Source: Patescibacteria group bacterium (GTDB lineage Bacteria; Patescibacteriota; Patescibacteriia; Patescibacteriales; JBAZCA01). From it: a stretch of DNA of 64,000 bases. Below are positions 5,152 to 63,616 of this stretch, in pieces. The notes under the pieces were generated by a model. That model saw only the letters and a list, made by a program, of their open reading frames with translations. It made no database searches and was not told the DNA's origin. Each line of letters opens with the position of its first letter. Position 1 is the stretch's first letter. Both the position numbers and the translations under genes were made by a program. The stretch lies in assembly GCA_041661405.1 (NCBI GenBank), contig JBAZUL010000009.1, positions 464 through 64,463 of the forward strand, in the 5' to 3' direction.

Positions 5152-6138
5152 TTAGTCGCGCTGGCCGGGACCGGGTTGCCCTTCAAAATCCATGTAAATG
5201 TCATTCCTCATAATATTCAGGCGGGGAATAATTTTTACTTCGGACGCGTAGGACGCGGACGTCGCCCAGCTTAAGGATATATCATGGCTTTCGCCGGACA
5301 TGAAATTCTCTTCAGTATATGAAGAAAGGCTTATAATCCGGCTTCCCTGATACAGAAGCGCCAAAAAATCAACGCTCCAGTAATTATAGGCGGTTTTGTT
5401 GGCGGCCGCAAACTGAACATTGGCAAAGTTGGTTTTTTTCGCGTTTTGGCCGTCTCCGCTGATGTCAAATTTCGGGTTTTCTATGGCAATATTCAGATGT
5501 TCATCTTTAAATTTCCGCCAGTCGGGTATTTCTTTAGCTTTAACCGGATGCCAGGCAATCTTATTTATTTTGAACTCCGCGCTGTAAGGGGTGGCTTCTG
5601 ATTCTTCGGACAGGGAGATGATAATTTTTTCCTCCCCGGGCAGGATGAAATCTTTTTTTTCGGACAGCTCTTCGCCGTTTACCCGAAACGTATAGGTAAA
5701 TTCGGCCCAATGTCTTGGGTTAGGATTTTTTGCTTCCAGTAAAAAATCGTAAGTTCCGGCCGAACCGTTGGCTAATGTTTGGACATCGCCGGTTTGGAGG
5801 GGTTCGGGCTGGTTGCTTTCAAAATATTCATGGCCCGCCACCCGGACGTTTGCCGCGTTATCCACCAAAGCCTGGTCTTCTTTCATGCCGACAAAAATAT
5901 AATAAACAAAACCGTAAAAGAAATAACCCCAGCCGAAAACCGAGACCGCGATTAAAAATCCGATCAAAGCCTTGCGCAGACGTTTAAGGTGCAAAATATA
6001 CCAAAGCCCGAAATTAAGTTTTTTGTCCGTTAACCCGGTCTGATCCGCGTAAGCGGGCGGACTTGCCTTGCGCGGTCCATCGGTGTCGCGGGACGAAGAA
6101 GGGCGGGTCTCAGCTTGGGATTCTTTTTTTGTTTGCAT
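5152..6138 (-). CDS. hypothetical membrane-anchored protein (disordered N-terminus, one TM region, extracytoplasmic domain)
   Basis: This is a long ORF. The start was set to the ATG at 6138 because the first 12 track codons translate the promoter at 6139-6174. Confidence 0.55.
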   Translation of the reverse strand: MQTKKESQAETRPSSSRDTDGPRKASPPAYADQTGLTDKKLNFGLWYILHLKRLRKALIGFLIAVSVFGWGYFFYGFVYYIFVGMKEDQALVDNAANVRVAGHEYFESNQPEPLQTGDVQTLANGSAGTYDFLLEAKNPNPRHWAEFTYTFRVNGEELSEKKDFILPGEEKIIISLSEESEATPYSAEFKINKIAWHPVKAKEIPDWRKFKDEHLNIAIENPKFDISGDGQNAKKTNFANVQFAAANKTAYNYWSVDFLALLYQGSRIISLSSYTEENFMSGESHDISLSWATSASYASEVKIIPRLNIMRNDIYMDFEGQPGPGQRD

Positions 6139-6174
6139 ATTAATCATAATAGCAAATTTACGAATTTCGTTCAA
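6139..6174 (-). promoter_or_regulatory. sigma70-type promoter abutting the start codon (leaderless architecture)
   Basis: The minus strand reads TTGAAC-17 nt (gaaattcgtaaatttgc)-TATTAT-7 nt-ATG. Confidence 0.65.
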
Positions 6175-6180
6175 TGGATT

Positions 6181-6231
6181 TTGACATCCAAACAGGTTTA
6201 ATGTAATCTTAAAACAGGTTTGCTAATCTTA
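6181..6231 (+). promoter_or_regulatory. promoter plus tandem direct-repeat operator of the toxin-antitoxin operon
   Basis: TTGACA(6181-6186)-17 nt-TAATCT is followed by two tandem copies of AAACAGGTTT..(G)TAATCTTA at 6190-6211 and 6212-6231. Confidence 0.5.
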
Positions 6232-6248
6232 TTTTAAATTTCAAAGCT

Positions 6249-6509
6249 ATGCTAAAGTCATTAACTTGCAATAAATCAATACCTCTGTCCTCGCTCAATG
6301 AAAAAACCGGACGCTTGCTTAAAGGCATAGCGAGCCTGACGGACGATAAGGGGGCGGTAAAGGGATTTTTTATTGACCTTAACTCATGGGAGGAACTTCT
6401 GGAAGATATGGAATCCGCCGCTCCGGAATTTTCCGAAGAAATGAGCCGTTCCAAGGCTTCGGGCCGGATTTCGGGCGCCAATATTAAAAAAACGTTTGGA
6501 ATCAAATAA
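6249..6509 (+). CDS. putative type II antitoxin
   Basis: This 86-aa ORF lies 6 nt upstream of a RelE/ParE toxin gene and has an acidic C-terminal half. The call rests on position and size only. Confidence 0.5.
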   Translation: MLKSLTCNKSIPLSSLNEKTGRLLKGIASLTDDKGAVKGFFIDLNSWEELLEDMESAAPEFSEEMSRSKASGRISGANIKKTFGIK

Positions 6510-6515
6510 AAATTT

Positions 6516-6794
6516 ATGCTCCGATTTGACTTTACCAAGGCCGCCAAAAAAGAGCTTGACCGGCTTCCGGCTGATACTGGAAAAAGGATTGTTGAAAAAA
6601 TAATCTTCTATTGTTCCCAATCCGAGCCGCTCAGGAATGCCAAGCATCTTTCCGCGGTCGGAGGAAAAATTTATCGTTTCCGGATCGGAGACTATCGGGT
6701 TGTTTTTGAGGCAGAAAAAAACGGTATTCTGATTACGAAAGTTGAACATCGGGGCAATATCTACAAAAGAATGCTTTTTGATGTTTTTCTTTAA
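6516..6794 (+). CDS. RelE/ParE family type II toxin
   Basis: The 92-aa product carries the characteristic RelE/ParE signature IYRFRIGDYRVVFEAEKNGILITKVEHRGNIY. Confidence 0.8.
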   Translation: MLRFDFTKAAKKELDRLPADTGKRIVEKIIFYCSQSEPLRNAKHLSAVGGKIYRFRIGDYRVVFEAEKNGILITKVEHRGNIYKRMLFDVFL

Positions 6795-6813
6795 ATAATA
6801 AAAAATTTTCCCG

Positions 6814-6848
6814 ACCACCCCGCGTTTGCTGGGTGGTTTTATTTTTTT
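6814..6848 (+). terminator. rho-independent terminator of the toxin-antitoxin operon
   Basis: Stem ACCACCC/GGGTGGT with a 10-nt loop is followed by TTTTATTTTTTT. Confidence 0.75.
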
Positions 6849-6850
6849 CC

Positions 6851-6912
6851 AAAAAAAAGCGGACAGGTGCGTTTAGTGTGATGCCAAAGCAAAACGCTAA
6901 ACGTCCCTGTCC
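6851..6912 (-). terminator. rho-independent terminator of the 6947-7825 gene (convergent with the previous terminator)
   Basis: A long stem (GGACAGG..GCGTTTAG / CTAAACG..CCTGTCC) is followed on the minus strand by T8. Confidence 0.7.
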
Positions 6913-6946
6913 CTATGTATTGGAGCTTGATGCCTATTTATTCATC

Positions 6947-7825
6947 TCATCTCCCGCCTGCTCCGGTCGGCGGCTGGCATATTTGGATACCGCCATACCC
7001 CCAGAAACAGAAGTTGCTTTGAGAGGATTTGCCGCTAATCGTGACCTCGGCGACCGGACAGGAATTTGCCAGGTTTTCGTAATAGTCGAGCGTCACTCTG
7101 AAAACGAACTGGAGCGTCCGGTTTCCCCACTGATCGGTTTTTTCTTCGACCGTTGACCCGGCCACGAAAGCGATTTGGTCGATAACAAGGCTGACCGGAT
7201 CGCCGACACGGATTGTTGTGTCGAAAAATGGTTGAAGAACAACCGCAATTTCCATATCCTGTGATCCGCGTCGACACGTTTTTATCACGTAGAACTGAAA
7301 CGGCTGGATGTCCATGACGCGGCTAGCCGAAAAGTAATAGCCCTTTGATATAGGAATACGAATTTCTATGAGGTAGCTCCCGTCTTCAGTGAAGTACTGC
7401 TGCCCGCTTCCTTTTCCTTCGGAGCCAACTACAGGGAAGCCAAAACTTCCCTCATTCATCCCCAACGGAAAAGAGCCAACACGGCGGCCATTCACAAAGA
7501 CTCGAGCTCGTTTCCCGGCCCAAAATTCCGACTGGAAGTTGACGTTGGCGGAAAAATACAGCCTGTTCACGGCTCCGCCCGTTTCCCAACCTCGCCAAAT
7601 ATCAACGACCGGTACATCCACATTTCCGCCAAACATTCCACTAACCGCGCTTGTGCCGACCGCTACCGTTGCGCCACTGGTGCTTTTTACAGCTACCTTT
7701 GCCGGAGGCGGGTTTTGCTCGCGACTATCACCCGCCAAGACCTCGGCGGGGTTGAAGGTTGCTAAAAAAGTAAACGAAAAAACGCCAATAACCATGGCCA
7801 GCAGAACACGTGTCAAACCTTTCAT
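6947..7825 (-). CDS. secreted hypothetical protein
   Basis: The ATG at 7825 is preceded by GGAGGA 5 nt upstream. The product starts with signal peptide MKGLTRVLLAMVIGVFSFTFLA. I recognise no family. Confidence 0.6.
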   Translation of the reverse strand: MKGLTRVLLAMVIGVFSFTFLATFNPAEVLAGDSREQNPPPAKVAVKSTSGATVAVGTSAVSGMFGGNVDVPVVDIWRGWETGGAVNRLYFSANVNFQSEFWAGKRARVFVNGRRVGSFPLGMNEGSFGFPVVGSEGKGSGQQYFTEDGSYLIEIRIPISKGYYFSASRVMDIQPFQFYVIKTCRRGSQDMEIAVVLQPFFDTTIRVGDPVSLVIDQIAFVAGSTVEEKTDQWGNRTLQFVFRVTLDYYENLANSCPVAEVTISGKSSQSNFCFWGYGGIQICQPPTGAGGR

Positions 7826-8014
7826 AACTTTCCTCCATTTCTTAATGTAAGGCACAGTTTTTGTTTTTTCCTCTCTTTCTTCCTCTTCGCTTCTAACCTC
7901 TTCCTTCCCGCTTCACCTCCCTTTCCGCCCAAAGTAAAAAATAGGCTTTAAATGTTAAAGATCAACGAAATTTGACAAAGACAACAAAAATCATTCCTTG
8001 CCAAATAACCGTTG

Positions 8015-8043
8015 AGCATAACAGAAGAAGAAGAGGAAGTCAA
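8015..8043 (-). promoter_or_regulatory. sigma70-type promoter with a leader of about 180 nt for the 6947-7825 gene
   Basis: The minus strand reads TTGACT-17 nt-TATGCT. The downstream leader contains a polypurine tract of about 70 nt (7862-7930). Confidence 0.5.
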
Positions 8044-8056
8044 GAGTGCCGAGCGC

Positions 8057-8164
8057 GTGAGCGAGACATCCCGCTGGCGAAGCTGGCGGGAACAACACCC
8101 CGTCCCGCAAGCGGGTCGGGATGATTTGCTCACACGCAAATCAAAAACCCCTTTTTTAAAGGGG
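8057..8164. repeat. 108-nt multi-hairpin intergenic repeat, copy A
   Basis: This is a direct repeat of 8539-8648. Its last ~70 nt are nearly identical to copy B (...gcgggtcgggatgatttgctcacacgcaaatcaaaaacccc...aaagggg). It contains four consecutive hairpins. Confidence 0.85.
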
Positions 8165-8233
8165 TATTAAAGATTTTTGGGTTGTATTTAACTTTAAATT
8201 TAGTTTTCAGCCAGACTGAAGTCCAATATTTCT

Positions 8234-8488
8234 TCATGCATATCTGGCGAAATAATGTTTAAAATAATTTTTTACTTCCGGGCGGTAGTTGCTTCGGGTT
8301 TTATTGGCCTCACTCGTGAAAATCCCGGCGATTTTTTTTATCCCCAGAATTTTGATTATTTCCTTTACATCCTTCCAGTCGCCGTAATTTAAAACAGCTT
8401 CAACAAGAGACTCGTCCGAAACGTTCTCAGGATTCTTTATATACCAAAACAAATATTTCCTTTTTTTGATAAATTCCTTGCGGGTCAT
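8234..8488 (-). CDS. hypothetical small protein (84 aa)
   Basis: MTRKEFIKKRKYLFWYIKNPENVSDESLVEAVLNYGDWKDVKEII... The start was moved to 8488 because the upstream track codons translate promoter and repeat sequence. Confidence 0.55.
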   Translation of the reverse strand: MTRKEFIKKRKYLFWYIKNPENVSDESLVEAVLNYGDWKDVKEIIKILGIKKIAGIFTSEANKTRSNYRPEVKNYFKHYFARYA

Positions 8489-8524
8489 ATATATAATTAT
8501 ATCAAATTTACGGATTTTATCCAA
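8489..8524 (-). promoter_or_regulatory. sigma70-type promoter abutting the start codon (leaderless architecture)
   Basis: The minus strand reads TTGGAT-17 nt (aaaatccgtaaatttga)-TATAAT-7 nt-ATG. Confidence 0.65.
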
Positions 8525-8538
8525 TGGTTTTTGAACGT

Positions 8539-8648
8539 GTGGGCGAGGCATCCCGCAGCCGCAAGACATGCGGGCACAACAACCCCGCCCCGTAAGCGGG
8601 TCGGGATGATTTGCTCACACGCAAATCAAAAACCCCATTTTAAAGGGG
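8539..8648. repeat. 108-nt multi-hairpin intergenic repeat, copy B
   Basis: See copy A. The first hairpin differs in its internal sequence but still folds (CCCGCA...TGCGGG). Confidence 0.85.
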
Positions 8649-8669
8649 CTTGCGGTTTCTAAAATCCGG

Positions 8670-9987: not shown

Positions 9988-10096
9988 TAATATTTTATGA
10001 AGACTAGGAGAGGGCGTTAGCCGGACTGTAAGACATTTTTTAGCGCTTCGTCAGGATATTCAGTTAATTAATAAGCATAAAACTTGCAAAAATCAT

Positions 10097-32085: not shown

Positions 32086-32142
32086 AAATTAATATTGTCA
32101 GATGTAGTTTTTAAAAATGATCCTTTAAGCTCATTTTTATAG

Positions 32143-32164
32143 TTTGCTCGGGGGCTTGGATTCG
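32143..32164. repeat. distal att-like copy of the tRNA-Gln 3' end
   Basis: It is identical over 22 nt to 37731-37752. Weaker similarity extends to 32129. Confidence 0.85.
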
Positions 32165-37693: not shown

Positions 37694-37717
37694 AAAAAAC
37701 AGGCTCATTTGAGCCTG
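37694..37717 (-). terminator. rho-independent terminator after tRNA-Gln
   Basis: Stem CAGGCTC/GAGCCTG with a 4-nt loop is followed by T6 on the minus strand, 17 nt past the tRNA 3' end. Confidence 0.75.
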
Positions 37718-37730
37718 CTCATTCCTGTAA

Positions 37731-37752
37731 TTTGCTCGGGGGCTTGGATTCG
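37731..37752. repeat. proximal att-like repeat (tRNA-Gln 3' end plus 4 nt)
   Basis: It is identical to 32143-32164. Confidence 0.85.
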
Positions 37753-37805
37753 AACCAAAATTCTCAGGTTCAGAGCCTGATGTCCTGCCGTTAGACGACC
37801 CCCGA
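37735..37805 (-). tRNA. tRNA-Gln (anticodon CTG)
   Basis: A hand-folded 71-nt cloverleaf has acceptor TCGGGGG/CCCCCGA, anticodon stem TCAGG/CCTGA with loop CTCTGAA, and T arm TTTGG-TTCGAAT-CCAAG. Confidence 0.85.
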
Positions 37806-43957: not shown

Positions 43958-45040
43958 TTATAACATTTTTTCTCCGGCTTGAACACGCGACATCAGTCGG
44001 CGCAACTCGCTGGCGTCCCCGGGAGTAAAGAGCGCGCCGCCGCATTTTTCAATCAATTCGGGAATTCCTCCGATCCGCGACGCAATAACCGGCAGTCCGG
44101 CCCGGCAGGCTTCAAAAATTACGGCCGGAGCGTTTTCATAGCAAAGCGAAGGGACAACAAGGCAATCCGCAACGGCCATGATTTTTTCTACTTCTTCGCG
44201 GCTTTTGCGCCCAAAGAATTTAATCCGCGAGTTTTGGCCAGCCCTTTCTTTCAGGCTGGCCAAAAATCCGCCTTCCCCGACAATCAATAATTCCGCGTTT
44301 CCTTTTGATCCGCCGAACGCCTCAATAAGAGTTTCAACACCTTTATGCTTTTCCACTTGCCCGACAAAAAGAAAATTAAAACCACCGTTCTCGTCTTTTG
44401 TCCTTAATATTGAATCTCCAATTGCCGATTTCTTAACTTCAATTTTTGAATTTGAAAAGAATCCTCTTTCCTGATGCAGATTTATAAGCCAATTCGTCGG
44501 GGAAATAACCTTATTAGGCGATCCGAGCAATTGGGCGCAGATACGCTGGTAAAATATAGCCGCCGCGCTGTCCAGTTTTTTTTCTTCGCCAAAATATAAA
44601 AGCCCGGAAGGGTAAACAAGCTGAATATCATGCAAATAGTGATAATGTTCAATTTCCAACTTTCTTATCATCCCAGGGATAAGATAGCCGATGCCTTTCA
44701 GGTTGTGCGTAACAATCAAATCCGGCTTTTCTTTTTCCAGAATTCTTTTTACCCGATAGCATGAAACAGCGTCAAACATGTCCCAAACATGCCAAGTCAA
44801 GCGCGAAATTAAGGGCAGTTTTGACAGATTATAGTACAATCCCGGGATTTGAAATATTTTTATATTTTCATTGGAAATTGGAAATTGGAAATTGGAAATT
44901 TTATTGGAATACGGTTTTGTCGTAATTACAATAATTTCATGCCCCTCCTTGATGTATGCCTCAGACATGATTTCTACCACCCGCTCGGCTCCCCCTCGGT
45001 CGTATGGCTTGTATAAGTTGTTTATTAAGCAGATTTTCAT
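43958..45040 (-). CDS. glycosyltransferase family 4 (GT-B)
   Basis: YKPYDRGGAERVV opens the protein, and the C-terminus has E..PAVIFEA.A.GLPVIAS...GIPE (an EX7E region). A heptamer array lies inside the ORF. Confidence 0.85.
   Translation of the reverse strand: MKICLINNLYKPYDRGGAERVVEIMSEAYIKEGHEIIVITTKPYSNKISNFQFPISNENIKIFQIPGLYYNLSKLPLISRLTWHVWDMFDAVSCYRVKRILEKEKPDLIVTHNLKGIGYLIPGMIRKLEIEHYHYLHDIQLVYPSGLLYFGEEKKLDSAAAIFYQRICAQLLGSPNKVISPTNWLINLHQERGFFSNSKIEVKKSAIGDSILRTKDENGGFNFLFVGQVEKHKGVETLIEAFGGSKGNAELLIVGEGGFLASLKERAGQNSRIKFFGRKSREEVEKIMAVADCLVVPSLCYENAPAVIFEACRAGLPVIASRIGGIPELIEKCGGALFTPGDASELRRLMSRVQAGEKML
44870..44900. repeat. tandem heptanucleotide array (ATTGGAA)x4 plus a partial unit, inside the GT4 coding sequence
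   Basis: Four perfect units span 44870-44897, and another copy lies at 44903-44909. The array is translated as [13 protein letters not shown]. Confidence 0.9.
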
Positions 45041-45079: not shown

Positions 45080-46249
45080 TTACGCCTTTATCGCTTTCTC
45101 CAGCTCATCCCCGGTTTTCTCCCAATCATATTTCATTTCAACCAGCTTTCTCCCGGCCCGGCCCATTTTCCTCCGCAGTTCATCATCCGCCAATATTTTT
45201 TCCATTTTTTCCGCAAGGTCTTTCGCGTCTCCGGCCCGAGCGAGATACCCTTGAATTCCATCCTGAAAAACGCTTCTTACTCCCGGCAGGTTTGACGCGA
45301 TTACTGGCGTTCCCGAGGCCATGGCTTCCAGAAGGACCAACCCGAAAGCCTCGCCTTTGGCAACGGACGGCAGGACAAAAATGTCCGCTGACCGGTATAA
45401 TTTCGGTAATTCATCGGATGAAACCGAACCCAGGAACTTCGTCTTATCCGCAATGCCCAGATTTTCCGCCATCTTTTCGTAATGCGCTTTTAAATCGCCG
45501 CTACCAACGATTTGTAATTCATAATTTGCCTGCCTGCCGGTAGGCAAGGTAATTCGTAATTCACTCATTGCATCCAGCAACGTGTCCAGCCCTTTAAAAT
45601 AGTGCGCCCGGTCAAGGCCGGCGACGAATAAAATGGTCTTAGCTTTACCTGCGCTTTCTGTTTTCGCGTTTTCAGCTTCCGCGGCCGCTGGATAAAATCT
45701 TTTTAAATCAACTCCGAACGGCAGTTCAATAAATTTCTCCCGGCGCCTGGCGTACGAACTTTTAATATCGCTATTTTTAACATAATCCAAACTGGCGGTT
45801 AATACCGCGTCCGAACGCCGGATCAGGCCGGGCAATATGAACTTTGACGGCAGGCTCATCATTCCGGCAAAAGGCGAAAGTCCGGAGACGTCCATATGAT
45901 ACTGAAAAATTAATTTCCCCTTAAACATCCCGAATATCCGGGCGAGCCAGACCACTTCAGCGGTTCCGAAAAACGGATAATGCAAAATTACGGCGTCAAA
46001 ATTTCTCAGCTTAAAAAAAATCCGCGGGAGAAAAGCCGCGTTGCCGTATTTTAAAACCGGTTTCAAACGCGCAACCTTTTTATATCCGCTCAAGCCATCT
46101 GATTCCAAAGTATTTAATTTTCCGCGGAGCGGGGTGAAAGTTGTGATGCTATGCCCCCTCTCTGCTAAAAGCCGGGCGTAATTCAGAGCGACATTCCCCA
46201 TGCCGCCTTTATACGGCGGAAAGGTGCTGATAATTTGGGCGATTTTCAT
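45080..46249 (-). CDS. glycosyltransferase family 4 (GT-B)
   Basis: PYKGGMGNVA opens the protein, followed by PSVAKGEAFGLVLLEAMASGTPVIASNLPGVRSV. Confidence 0.85.
   Translation of the reverse strand: MKIAQIISTFPPYKGGMGNVALNYARLLAERGHSITTFTPLRGKLNTLESDGLSGYKKVARLKPVLKYGNAAFLPRIFFKLRNFDAVILHYPFFGTAEVVWLARIFGMFKGKLIFQYHMDVSGLSPFAGMMSLPSKFILPGLIRRSDAVLTASLDYVKNSDIKSSYARRREKFIELPFGVDLKRFYPAAAEAENAKTESAGKAKTILFVAGLDRAHYFKGLDTLLDAMSELRITLPTGRQANYELQIVGSGDLKAHYEKMAENLGIADKTKFLGSVSSDELPKLYRSADIFVLPSVAKGEAFGLVLLEAMASGTPVIASNLPGVRSVFQDGIQGYLARAGDAKDLAEKMEKILADDELRRKMGRAGRKLVEMKYDWEKTGDELEKAIKA
45514..45561. repeat. 22-nt GC palindrome flanked by 13-nt direct repeats, embedded in-frame in the GT4 gene
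   Basis: The sequence is gtaattcataatt | tgcctgcctgccggtaggcaag | gtaattcgtaatt. The core closely matches the intergenic palindrome at 676-697. Confidence 0.7.
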
Positions 46250-50192: not shown

Positions 50193-50311
50193 AATTTCAA
50201 ATTTCCAATTACTAATAAAAACTCCAATGTCCATAAATTTAATAAATGCGGTTTATATTATTGAGGCATTAGGCATTTTATTGGAAATTAGATATTGGGA
50301 ATTGGAAATTT
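50193..50311. repeat. inverted GGAAATT-type heptamer clusters in the kinase/regulator intergenic region
   Basis: aatttcaaatttccaatt (50193-50210) faces ttggaaatta...gggaattggaaatt (50281-50311). Confidence 0.7.
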
Positions 50312-50328
50312 TTACGCTTAAACCATTA

Positions 50329-63523: not shown

Positions 63524-63562
63524 AAAAACAACCCCGTCCCGCCCAATTAAGGCGGGACGGGG
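63524..63562 (-). terminator. rho-independent terminator
   Basis: A perfect 12-bp stem CCCCGTCCCGCC/GGCGGGACGGGG is followed by TTGTTTTT on the minus strand. Confidence 0.8.
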
Positions 63563-63616
63563 AGTTTATTTCAGTCGTATTAACCGAAATCTAAAACCAA
63601 TACTCTAACTAAATGA

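Follow-up and report, generated by a model that had tools for sequence, protein, structure and literature searches.

A repeated ~115-nt hairpin-bearing module on both sides of a small DUF6922-family gene in a Patescibacteria genome

Background

What is a structured intergenic segment doing twice, once on either side of a single small gene, in the genome of a Patescibacteria group bacterium? A sequence-only reading of this locus had described a directly repeated element of four hairpins, and had proposed that it is a modular terminator/insulator, a REP/BIME-like repeat or the source of a small structured RNA. Here we consider whether the repeat is real, which of its parts are conserved, how the locus differs from that of relatives, and which of these readings the evidence favours. 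The window to which we refer throughout is the whole 64-kb stretch of contig that was analysed.

The repeat and its authenticity

The two segments are copies of one intergenic module of ~115 nt, here called copy A and copy B. Alignment with blastn gave 86.3% identity over 117 nt (E=1.6e-27), which bears out the direct repeat originally placed at 8057-8164 and 8539-8648 and extends it slightly. A 67-nt block common to both copies is 93% identical, and a 41-nt core (GCGGGTCGGGATGATTTGCTCACACGCAAATCAAAAACCCC), for which 0 matches are expected by chance in shuffled sequence, is exact in both. According to a repeat finder, this is the longest repeat in the whole window, and its copies lie 485 nt apart. 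All local genes are on the minus strand, in the following order:

9987-9394, minus strand: ECF sigma factor
9452-8670, minus strand: DUF5667 anti-sigma factor
8533-8648, minus strand: copy B, between the anti-sigma stop codon (8670) and the small-gene promoter; R1 covariance model 85 bits
8496-8524, minus strand: small-gene promoter, TTGGAT-17-TATAAT
8234-8488, minus strand: small gene of the DUF6922 family, 84 aa, 195 homologues, start at 8488
8051-8164, minus strand: copy A, following the small gene and preceding the promoter of the 302-aa gene; R1 covariance model 81.6 bits
8015-8043, minus strand: promoter-like site before the 302-aa gene, TTGACT-17-TATGCT
7855-6947, minus strand: 302-aa gene, secreted-looking, within the insertion described below

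Read on the minus strand, each copy begins 22-70 nt past the stop codon of the upstream gene. The spacing from its end to the next -35 box, which had been called fixed, is indeed near-identical in the two copies: 7-8 nt from the last aligned base, or 13-14 nt by the narrower coordinates of the earlier reading, to the promoter-like sites at 8043-8015 and 8524-8496. An ECF-sigma promoter inside the element was considered and rejected, as inspection by eye revealed no consistent -35/-10 motif, and what lies upstream of the sigma gene does not resemble the element. The flanks of copy A and copy B are unrelated on both sides, and we are therefore dealing with a repeated unit with sharp ends. The divergence between the copies is very uneven, with differences at 0 of 43 core positions and at 23 of 79 positions elsewhere (Fisher p=1.6e-5), so that a plain recent local duplication also fits poorly.

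An assembly artefact is ruled out as the source of the repeat. An ENA assembly made independently (L004), which matches the window over 9.5 kb at 99.99% identity, has both copies. A third run yielded a Logan contig (L085) with the anti-sigma gene and the first part of copy B; it breaks off within the shared core, as an assembly graph that branches at a repeat would lead one to expect. Exact-protein look-ups for variants with one copy missing turned up nothing but this arrangement and contigs that break at the repeat.

Hairpins, folding and covariation

In minus-strand order, each copy consists of hairpin 1 followed by a T5 run, hairpin 2, which is a palindrome, hairpin 3 followed by TGTTGTT, and hairpin 4:

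8147-8165, minus strand: hairpin 1 of copy A, ACCCCTTT-AAA-AAAGGGGT, 8 pairs in the terminator scan, dG -9.8 kcal/mol
8630-8651, minus strand: hairpin 1 of copy B, CCCC-TTTAAAAT-GGGG with weak extensions, then a T5 run; 7 pairs in the terminator scan, dG -10.3 kcal/mol
8122-8143 (copy A) and 8607-8628 (copy B), minus strand: hairpin 2, perfect AT-rich palindrome TGATTTGC-N6-GCAAATCA, dG -9.5 kcal/mol
8098-8120, minus strand: hairpin 3 of copy A, CCCGACCCGC-TTGC-GGGACGGGG, then TGTTGTT
8583-8605, minus strand: hairpin 3 of copy B, scored terminator-like by the terminator scan
8070-8090 (copy A) and 8552-8574 (copy B), minus strand: hairpin 4, of which only the outer 5 bp are conserved, the interior diverging without compensation

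The terminator-like hairpin with a T-run that had been noted on the minus strand is predicted in both copies, in copy B more weakly. In copy A, the site (8165-8147, TTTTGATTTG) lies 70 nt past the stop codon of the small gene, and the T5 run occupies 8147-8143, its first T being the last base of the stem. In copy B, the site (8651-8630, TTGATTTGCG) lies 22 nt past the anti-sigma stop codon and has only four G-C pairs and an 8-nt loop, making it a weaker terminator-like site than that of copy A. Hairpin 3, with its GC-rich stem (dG -15.4 and -15.7 kcal/mol in the two copies), looks like a second, back-up terminator. As a prediction from sequence, then, the modular layout of terminator and promoter is supported, with a hairpin and U-tract after the stop codon in both copies.

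Each hairpin is stable when folded alone (-9.5 to -15.7 kcal/mol), and the whole element folds better than shuffled sequences (z -3.2 to -7.5). The four successive hairpins of the sequence-only reading nevertheless represent one possible fold: the minimum-free-energy fold lacks hairpin 2 and has instead a long-range stem of GCGUGUGAGC with GCUCACGCGC, in which the loop region of hairpin 2 is paired with the 3' tail and which is mutually exclusive with the four-hairpin fold.

The same reading had seen in one hairpin a difference of interior sequence with pairing kept, and from this a hint of selection on structure; the first does not hold, and the second is unsupported. In hairpin 4, the outer CCCGC/GCGGG pairs are invariant and are the only ones to form in both copies, while the interior of copy A is not complementary and is a direct repeat, GCTGGCG...GCTGGCG, with 2 mismatches. 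When the covariation check was run on the two copies with RNAalifold, none of the 31 predicted pairs had changed on both sides. Hairpin 2, an 8+8 palindrome, is unchanged between the copies, loop included.

A strain-specific insertion

Three relatives (L008, L009 and L010), whose anti-sigma protein is 76-83% identical to that of the window, share a simple gene order: the sigma gene, the anti-sigma gene, immediately a promoter (ATTGGATAAAGTCCGAGAATTTGCTATAAT), a 319-aa gene and then ftsW/rodA. Their 319-aa gene is the counterpart of the 340-aa ORF at 6174-5152 of the window, and none of the three has the element, or any terminator, between the anti-sigma gene and the next gene. Because the anti-sigma stop codon of the relatives abuts the promoter of the next conserved gene, 6175-8669 of the window is an insertion. 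The features concerned are:

6175-8669, no strand: strain-specific insertion of ~2.5 kb; the blastn synteny break lies between 8670/8684 and ~6060
6249-6794, plus strand: parDE-like genes, within the insertion
6136-6184, minus strand: second ancestral promoter region, which over 49 nt shares 79.6% identity with 8486-8534; it now precedes the conserved 340-aa gene

Copies B and A, the small gene between them, the 302-aa gene and the parDE-like pair all lie in the insertion, which is a mosaic of toxin-antitoxin genes outside the conserved backbone of the locus. Copy B sits within a 145-nt stretch (8525-8669) with weak terminal inverted repeats, which separates the anti-sigma stop codon from an ancestral-type promoter and is missing from all three relatives. 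That promoter, now serving the small gene, matches at 26 of 30 positions the one that directly follows the anti-sigma stop codon in the relatives. The two promoter copies (8486-8534 and 6136-6184) bracket most of the island, with copy A inside and copy B outside this boundary, and they share changes that are absent from the relatives, which indicates that the duplication arose in this lineage.

In another Patescibacteria genome (L005/L006), a toxin-antitoxin island matches parts of this one at 76-81% identity: the small gene and the -10 box before it, the 302-aa gene at its 3' end with the terminator, and parDE. The element is absent from that other island. We also observed that L005/L006 retain just the final codons and terminator of a 302-aa-like gene, fused to a truncated AbiEii gene that precedes them (L006 5539-5721 against window 6847-6973). 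L005/L006 and the window are different deletion derivatives of a similar toxin-antitoxin island.

Another small intergenic hairpin insertion/deletion in the same lineage lies ahead of the sigma gene, where a GC-rich hairpin of L008 (GCCCGCCCC...GGCGGGGCGGGG, L008 3143-3175) is missing from the window at ~10010-10030.

The small DUF6922-family gene

The gene between the copies encodes a member of a family conserved in Patescibacteria (195 homologues, 84-85 aa), with a weak match to Pfam DUF6922 (E=2e-4, below the curated cutoff). All 195 homologues begin MT(R/I)xxFIKK and are ~84-85 aa long; we thus concur with the earlier suspicion that the ORF at 7948-8139 and a 27-codon N-terminal extension of the small gene are spurious. 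In four other loci (L007, L011, L014 and the P0006 locus), the small-gene homologue is followed by an AbiEii toxin gene with an 8-nt overlap, and in L005/L006 just a 96-aa AbiEii remnant follows. The window retains less:

8200-8241, minus strand: AbiEii toxin gene remnant of 13 codons; homology to L006 stops at 8224

With 13 codons of the toxin gene left in the window, the small gene is an orphan, antitoxin-like partner. The AlphaFold model of its product is all-helical (pLDDT 95, pTM 0.85), and a comparison of the model with the PDB gave no match at E<2 and no significant DNA-binding fold.

The -10 box of the small gene lies 7 nt before its ATG, and the distance is 7-8 nt in three DUF6922 loci (window 8496-8488, L006 4985-5003 and L007 4988-5003), which suggests that the mRNAs of DUF6922 genes may be leaderless.

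Distribution of the element

No further copy of the element was found in the 64-kb window by blastn, by a repeat finder or by a covariance model with filters off. The model of hairpins 2 and 3, run over the whole window in this manner, returned the two copies (85 and 81.6 bits) and a site at 63525-63595 (27.5 bits), which is an ordinary terminator with a similar GC stem. A dispersed family of 'CCCGNCCCG' hairpins was likewise considered and rejected, as only ordinary terminators match it in the window. Three other sets of repeats were observed in the window. A 36-nt direct repeat, 89% identical, occurs at 32129-32164 and 37717-37752, the second overlapping the 3' end of tRNA-Gln (37734-37805, minus strand); the pair looks like attL/attR of an integrated element of ~5.6 kb. 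Runs of 4-5 units of the heptamer GGAAATT occur at 2019-2063, 44859-44902 and 50276-50313, one run being on the opposite strand. At 676-699 and 45526-45549 stand two palindromes that are nearly the same, rich in GC and terminator-like (CCCTGCCTGCCGGCAGGCAGGG), one of them just past tRNA-Trp.

Outside the window, the covariance model of hairpins 2 and 3 found nothing in the syntenic and DUF6922 loci searched (L005-L014), and the element is absent from beside the other DUF6922 genes in L005-L007 and L011-L014. Searches of viral contigs with three patterns yielded nothing, 67 matches to a 15-mer all failing the covariance model, and blastn against phage and plasmid collections gave nothing relevant. 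The element translated in six frames, a protein query of low sensitivity, had no match at E<=10. In Rfam, at the gathering threshold, the window contains two tRNAs only; the best sub-threshold match over the element (29.6 bits against a threshold of 75, a plant-virus element) is a chance one, permissive scans of both regions and of the homologue described below assigned no family, and no tRNA or tmRNA gene overlaps the element.

A search for an exact 20-mer of the core in species-representative genomes and JGI metagenomes, collections that did not return the source contig itself, gave one relevant match (L003); a Bdellovibrionales match (L001/L002) falls in a coding region and was discarded as chance. 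L003 is a 1.4-kb contig of Patescibacteria-like sequence with unrelated genes, which shares with the element 27 exact nt comprising hairpin 2, loop included, and the foot of hairpin 3. The remainder of hairpin 3 is rebuilt there, with one G-C/C-G swap and one mismatch turned into a wobble pair. Beyond the core, L003 resembles the flanks of copy A only marginally (p ~0.017) and those of copy B not at all. The relevant part of the contig is:

1237-1365 of L003, plus strand: promoter-like site TTGACG-17-TATAGT, then three hairpins; the last stem is terminator-like, and the contig ends 45 nt later

This strong promoter-like site lies ~40 nt ahead of the shared core, and a terminator-like score was obtained for hairpin 3 with the AGTTCTTT behind it; together they delimit a candidate RNA of ~90 nt that contains the core. 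Folding of L003 is significant (z -4 to -5); its hairpin 2 is one pair longer, and the long-range stem has no partner there. With L003 added to the covariation analysis, which then comprises only three sequences, 1 of 17 pairs is compensatory, a value that 162 of 500 shuffles also reach. G-U wobbles at the base of hairpin 3, on the gene strand, are tolerated in all three sequences, which fits a role at the RNA level on the sense strand.

Weighing the explanations

The repeat is real and low-copy, and is probably an ordinary intergenic repeat. As to what it does, we see an even prospect that it is a portable terminator/insulator module, belonging to a small low-copy repeat family and spread by recombination; termination activity, insulation and the mode of spread are all things that we infer from the DNA itself. 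Hairpin 1 with its U5 run would be the intrinsic terminator of the upstream gene, and hairpin 3 with UGUUGUU would serve as its back-up. Acting as terminator/insulator and structured 3' end, the module would separate genes with promoters of their own that recombination had made neighbours, and both copies would have arrived through recombination or insertion of a pre-existing module, in the events that built the island. Constraint within the family would fall on the 43-nt core, above all on hairpin 2 and one half of hairpin 3. This invariant core coincides with the 27-nt exact match and the structurally conserved hairpin 3 of L003, which argues for constraint or for a wider family. We stress that, with two known copies at such close quarters, the word family refers to these and to one partial homologue. 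Moreover, efficient termination at hairpin 1 would leave hairpins 2-4 seldom transcribed, and their conservation would then not be explained by termination alone. Nor does termination explain an invariant AT-rich palindrome downstream of the terminator, and for this reason we retain three rivals.

The repeat may instead be a functionless by-product of the building of the island, in which one copy was duplicated locally, or gene conversion took place, as the small-gene cassette was inserted, for example by integration of a circle through a single crossover at the element or by unequal recombination; the hairpins would then be no more than the terminator region that got copied. The sequence-only reading had regarded local duplication as the simpler explanation should there be two copies without covariation, and this is nearly what we find: the copies are adjacent, bracket a single cassette, have no others in 64 kb and show no compensatory changes. 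The locus also contains another small duplication, that of the promoter, and an identical core with divergent arms is an outcome of crossover or gene conversion between diverged alleles. However, the ancestral-type promoter between the copies is awkward for simple circle integration, the flanks are unrelated on both sides, and, besides the uneven divergence, the invariant part is the very one that recurs in L003 in an unrelated context, as constraint or a wider family would have it. We regard such a by-product as doubtful, while according it more weight than the two rivals that follow. A protein-binding or recombination site at the DNA level, with the palindrome as an operator or the module as a MITE-, att- or attC-like target or end, strikes us as improbable. 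The invariance of the perfect 8+8 palindrome in three sequences, even in its loop, would suit such a site, as would the ~20-nt imperfect inverted repeats, matching at 16 of 20 positions, that the module has when hairpin 1 is left aside, the weak terminal inverted repeats of the 145-nt insertion that holds copy B, and the succession element-gene-element, which is the layout left by site-specific integration. Yet neither attC box (RYYYAAC, GTTRRRY) is present, the target site is not duplicated, the inverted repeats do not coincide with the ends of the repeated unit, genes for an integrase or transposase are lacking within 7-9 kb, and the palindrome is missing from the other DUF6922 loci examined. 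The last point, together with the failure of the confidently modelled small protein (pLDDT 95) to match any DNA-binding fold in the PDB at E<2, led us to reject the palindrome as an operator of the small protein in particular.

The least probable of the rivals, in our judgement very improbable, is a small structured RNA or cis-acting RNA element with hairpins 2 and 3 as its functional core. The promoter-like site and terminator-like hairpin 3 of L003, which could yield a ~90-nt RNA, keep the small-RNA reading alive for that locus, and the folding z-score there and the compensatory pair and wobble in hairpin 3 point the same way. For the copies in the window it is unsupported: neither has a conserved promoter, on the gene strand the core comes after the terminator, which occupies the 5' end of the element, the plus strand is without a terminator, and no Rfam family matches. 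The covariation, reached by so many shuffles, is not significant, and hairpin 2 is conserved as sequence down to its loop, which is uninformative on RNA structure. A somewhat broader conjecture is that the 45-nt core of two hairpins, the invariant palindrome and the GC hairpin, is an undescribed, Patescibacteria-specific small RNA or mobile RNA-like module, of which L003 would be a ~90-nt gene with its own promoter and terminator, and the window copies promoterless versions that supply terminators and mark cassette boundaries within a toxin-antitoxin island; to this we grant hardly more probability.

If the portable-module reading is true, the locus would be a small example of how candidate phyla radiation genomes keep new genes transcriptionally separate, with a portable terminator block that comes with or beside inserted toxin-antitoxin cassettes. 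It would matter more only if the core were a widespread RNA or mobile element, or if the copies were recombination points at which such islands are assembled. For annotation, the value lies in two spurious ORF calls, the start of the small gene at 8488 and the recognition of the locus as a strain-specific insertion.

Comparison with known systems

REP/BIME of E. coli, BOX/RUP of S. pneumoniae and the Correia elements of Neisseria are, like the element, ~100-150 nt long, intergenic and near gene ends, and built of modular hairpins, with possible terminator/insulator effects and differences in presence or absence between related genomes. These families have tens to hundreds of dispersed copies with defined ends, a REP ending in GTAG and a Correia element in terminal inverted repeats with a TA duplication. 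The element differs from them in having two adjacent copies in 64 kb in place of many dispersed ones, no such ends and no associated transposase. The 5' GTAG that is conserved in the ~35-nt imperfect palindromes of REP stands at the foot of none of the hairpins, and no Pfam match to a RAYT (Y1 transposase) was found among the called genes within 7-9 kb, so that the suggestion of a REP/BIME-like repeat is not upheld. As for MITEs, the only candidate inverted repeats (GCGTGTGAGC...CATCCCG with CGGGATG...GCTCACGCG, ~20 nt) are imperfect and have their left arm 30 nt inside the unit, and comparison with the empty sites of L008 and L010 revealed no target-site duplication.

A toxin-antitoxin-type gene with its own promoter between direct hairpin repeats of ~110 nt also recalls integron attC sites and the toxin-antitoxin cassettes of chromosomal integrons. 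In contrast to an attC site, the element forms several sense-strand hairpins, not one bulged hairpin with terminal R boxes, and it brackets a single gene. A regular-expression search for R'' (RYYYAAC) and R' (GTTRRRY) core sites 40-130 nt apart found none on either strand of both copies or in the whole island, and no intI/integrase Pfam match was present among the called genes 7 kb upstream and 9 kb downstream; an attC site was accordingly rejected. The bracketed gene itself resembles AbiE type IV toxin-antitoxin systems, in that its homologues lie directly upstream of an AbiEii nucleotidyltransferase toxin gene, with the 8-nt overlap, a pairing seen at L007, L011, L014 and the P0006 locus and reduced in the window to the 13-codon toxin remnant. 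The small protein is not a canonical AbiEi, given its weak DUF6922 match and its lack of a PDB match.

The element departs from ordinary terminators in being repeated as a 115-nt unit of which 43 nt, the core, are invariant. It is otherwise close to intrinsic terminators: a stem-loop with a U-tract past the stop codon is predicted in both copies, at dG ~-10 kcal/mol and weak in copy B, and the element is placed as such terminators are, in the gap between same-strand genes each of which has its own promoter. Intrinsic terminators in which several hairpins cluster behind a stop codon have been described as a class (PMC8355165), and with these tandem or 'cluster-hairpin' terminators the element shares a GC-rich stem-loop and U-run past the stop codon with more hairpins behind.
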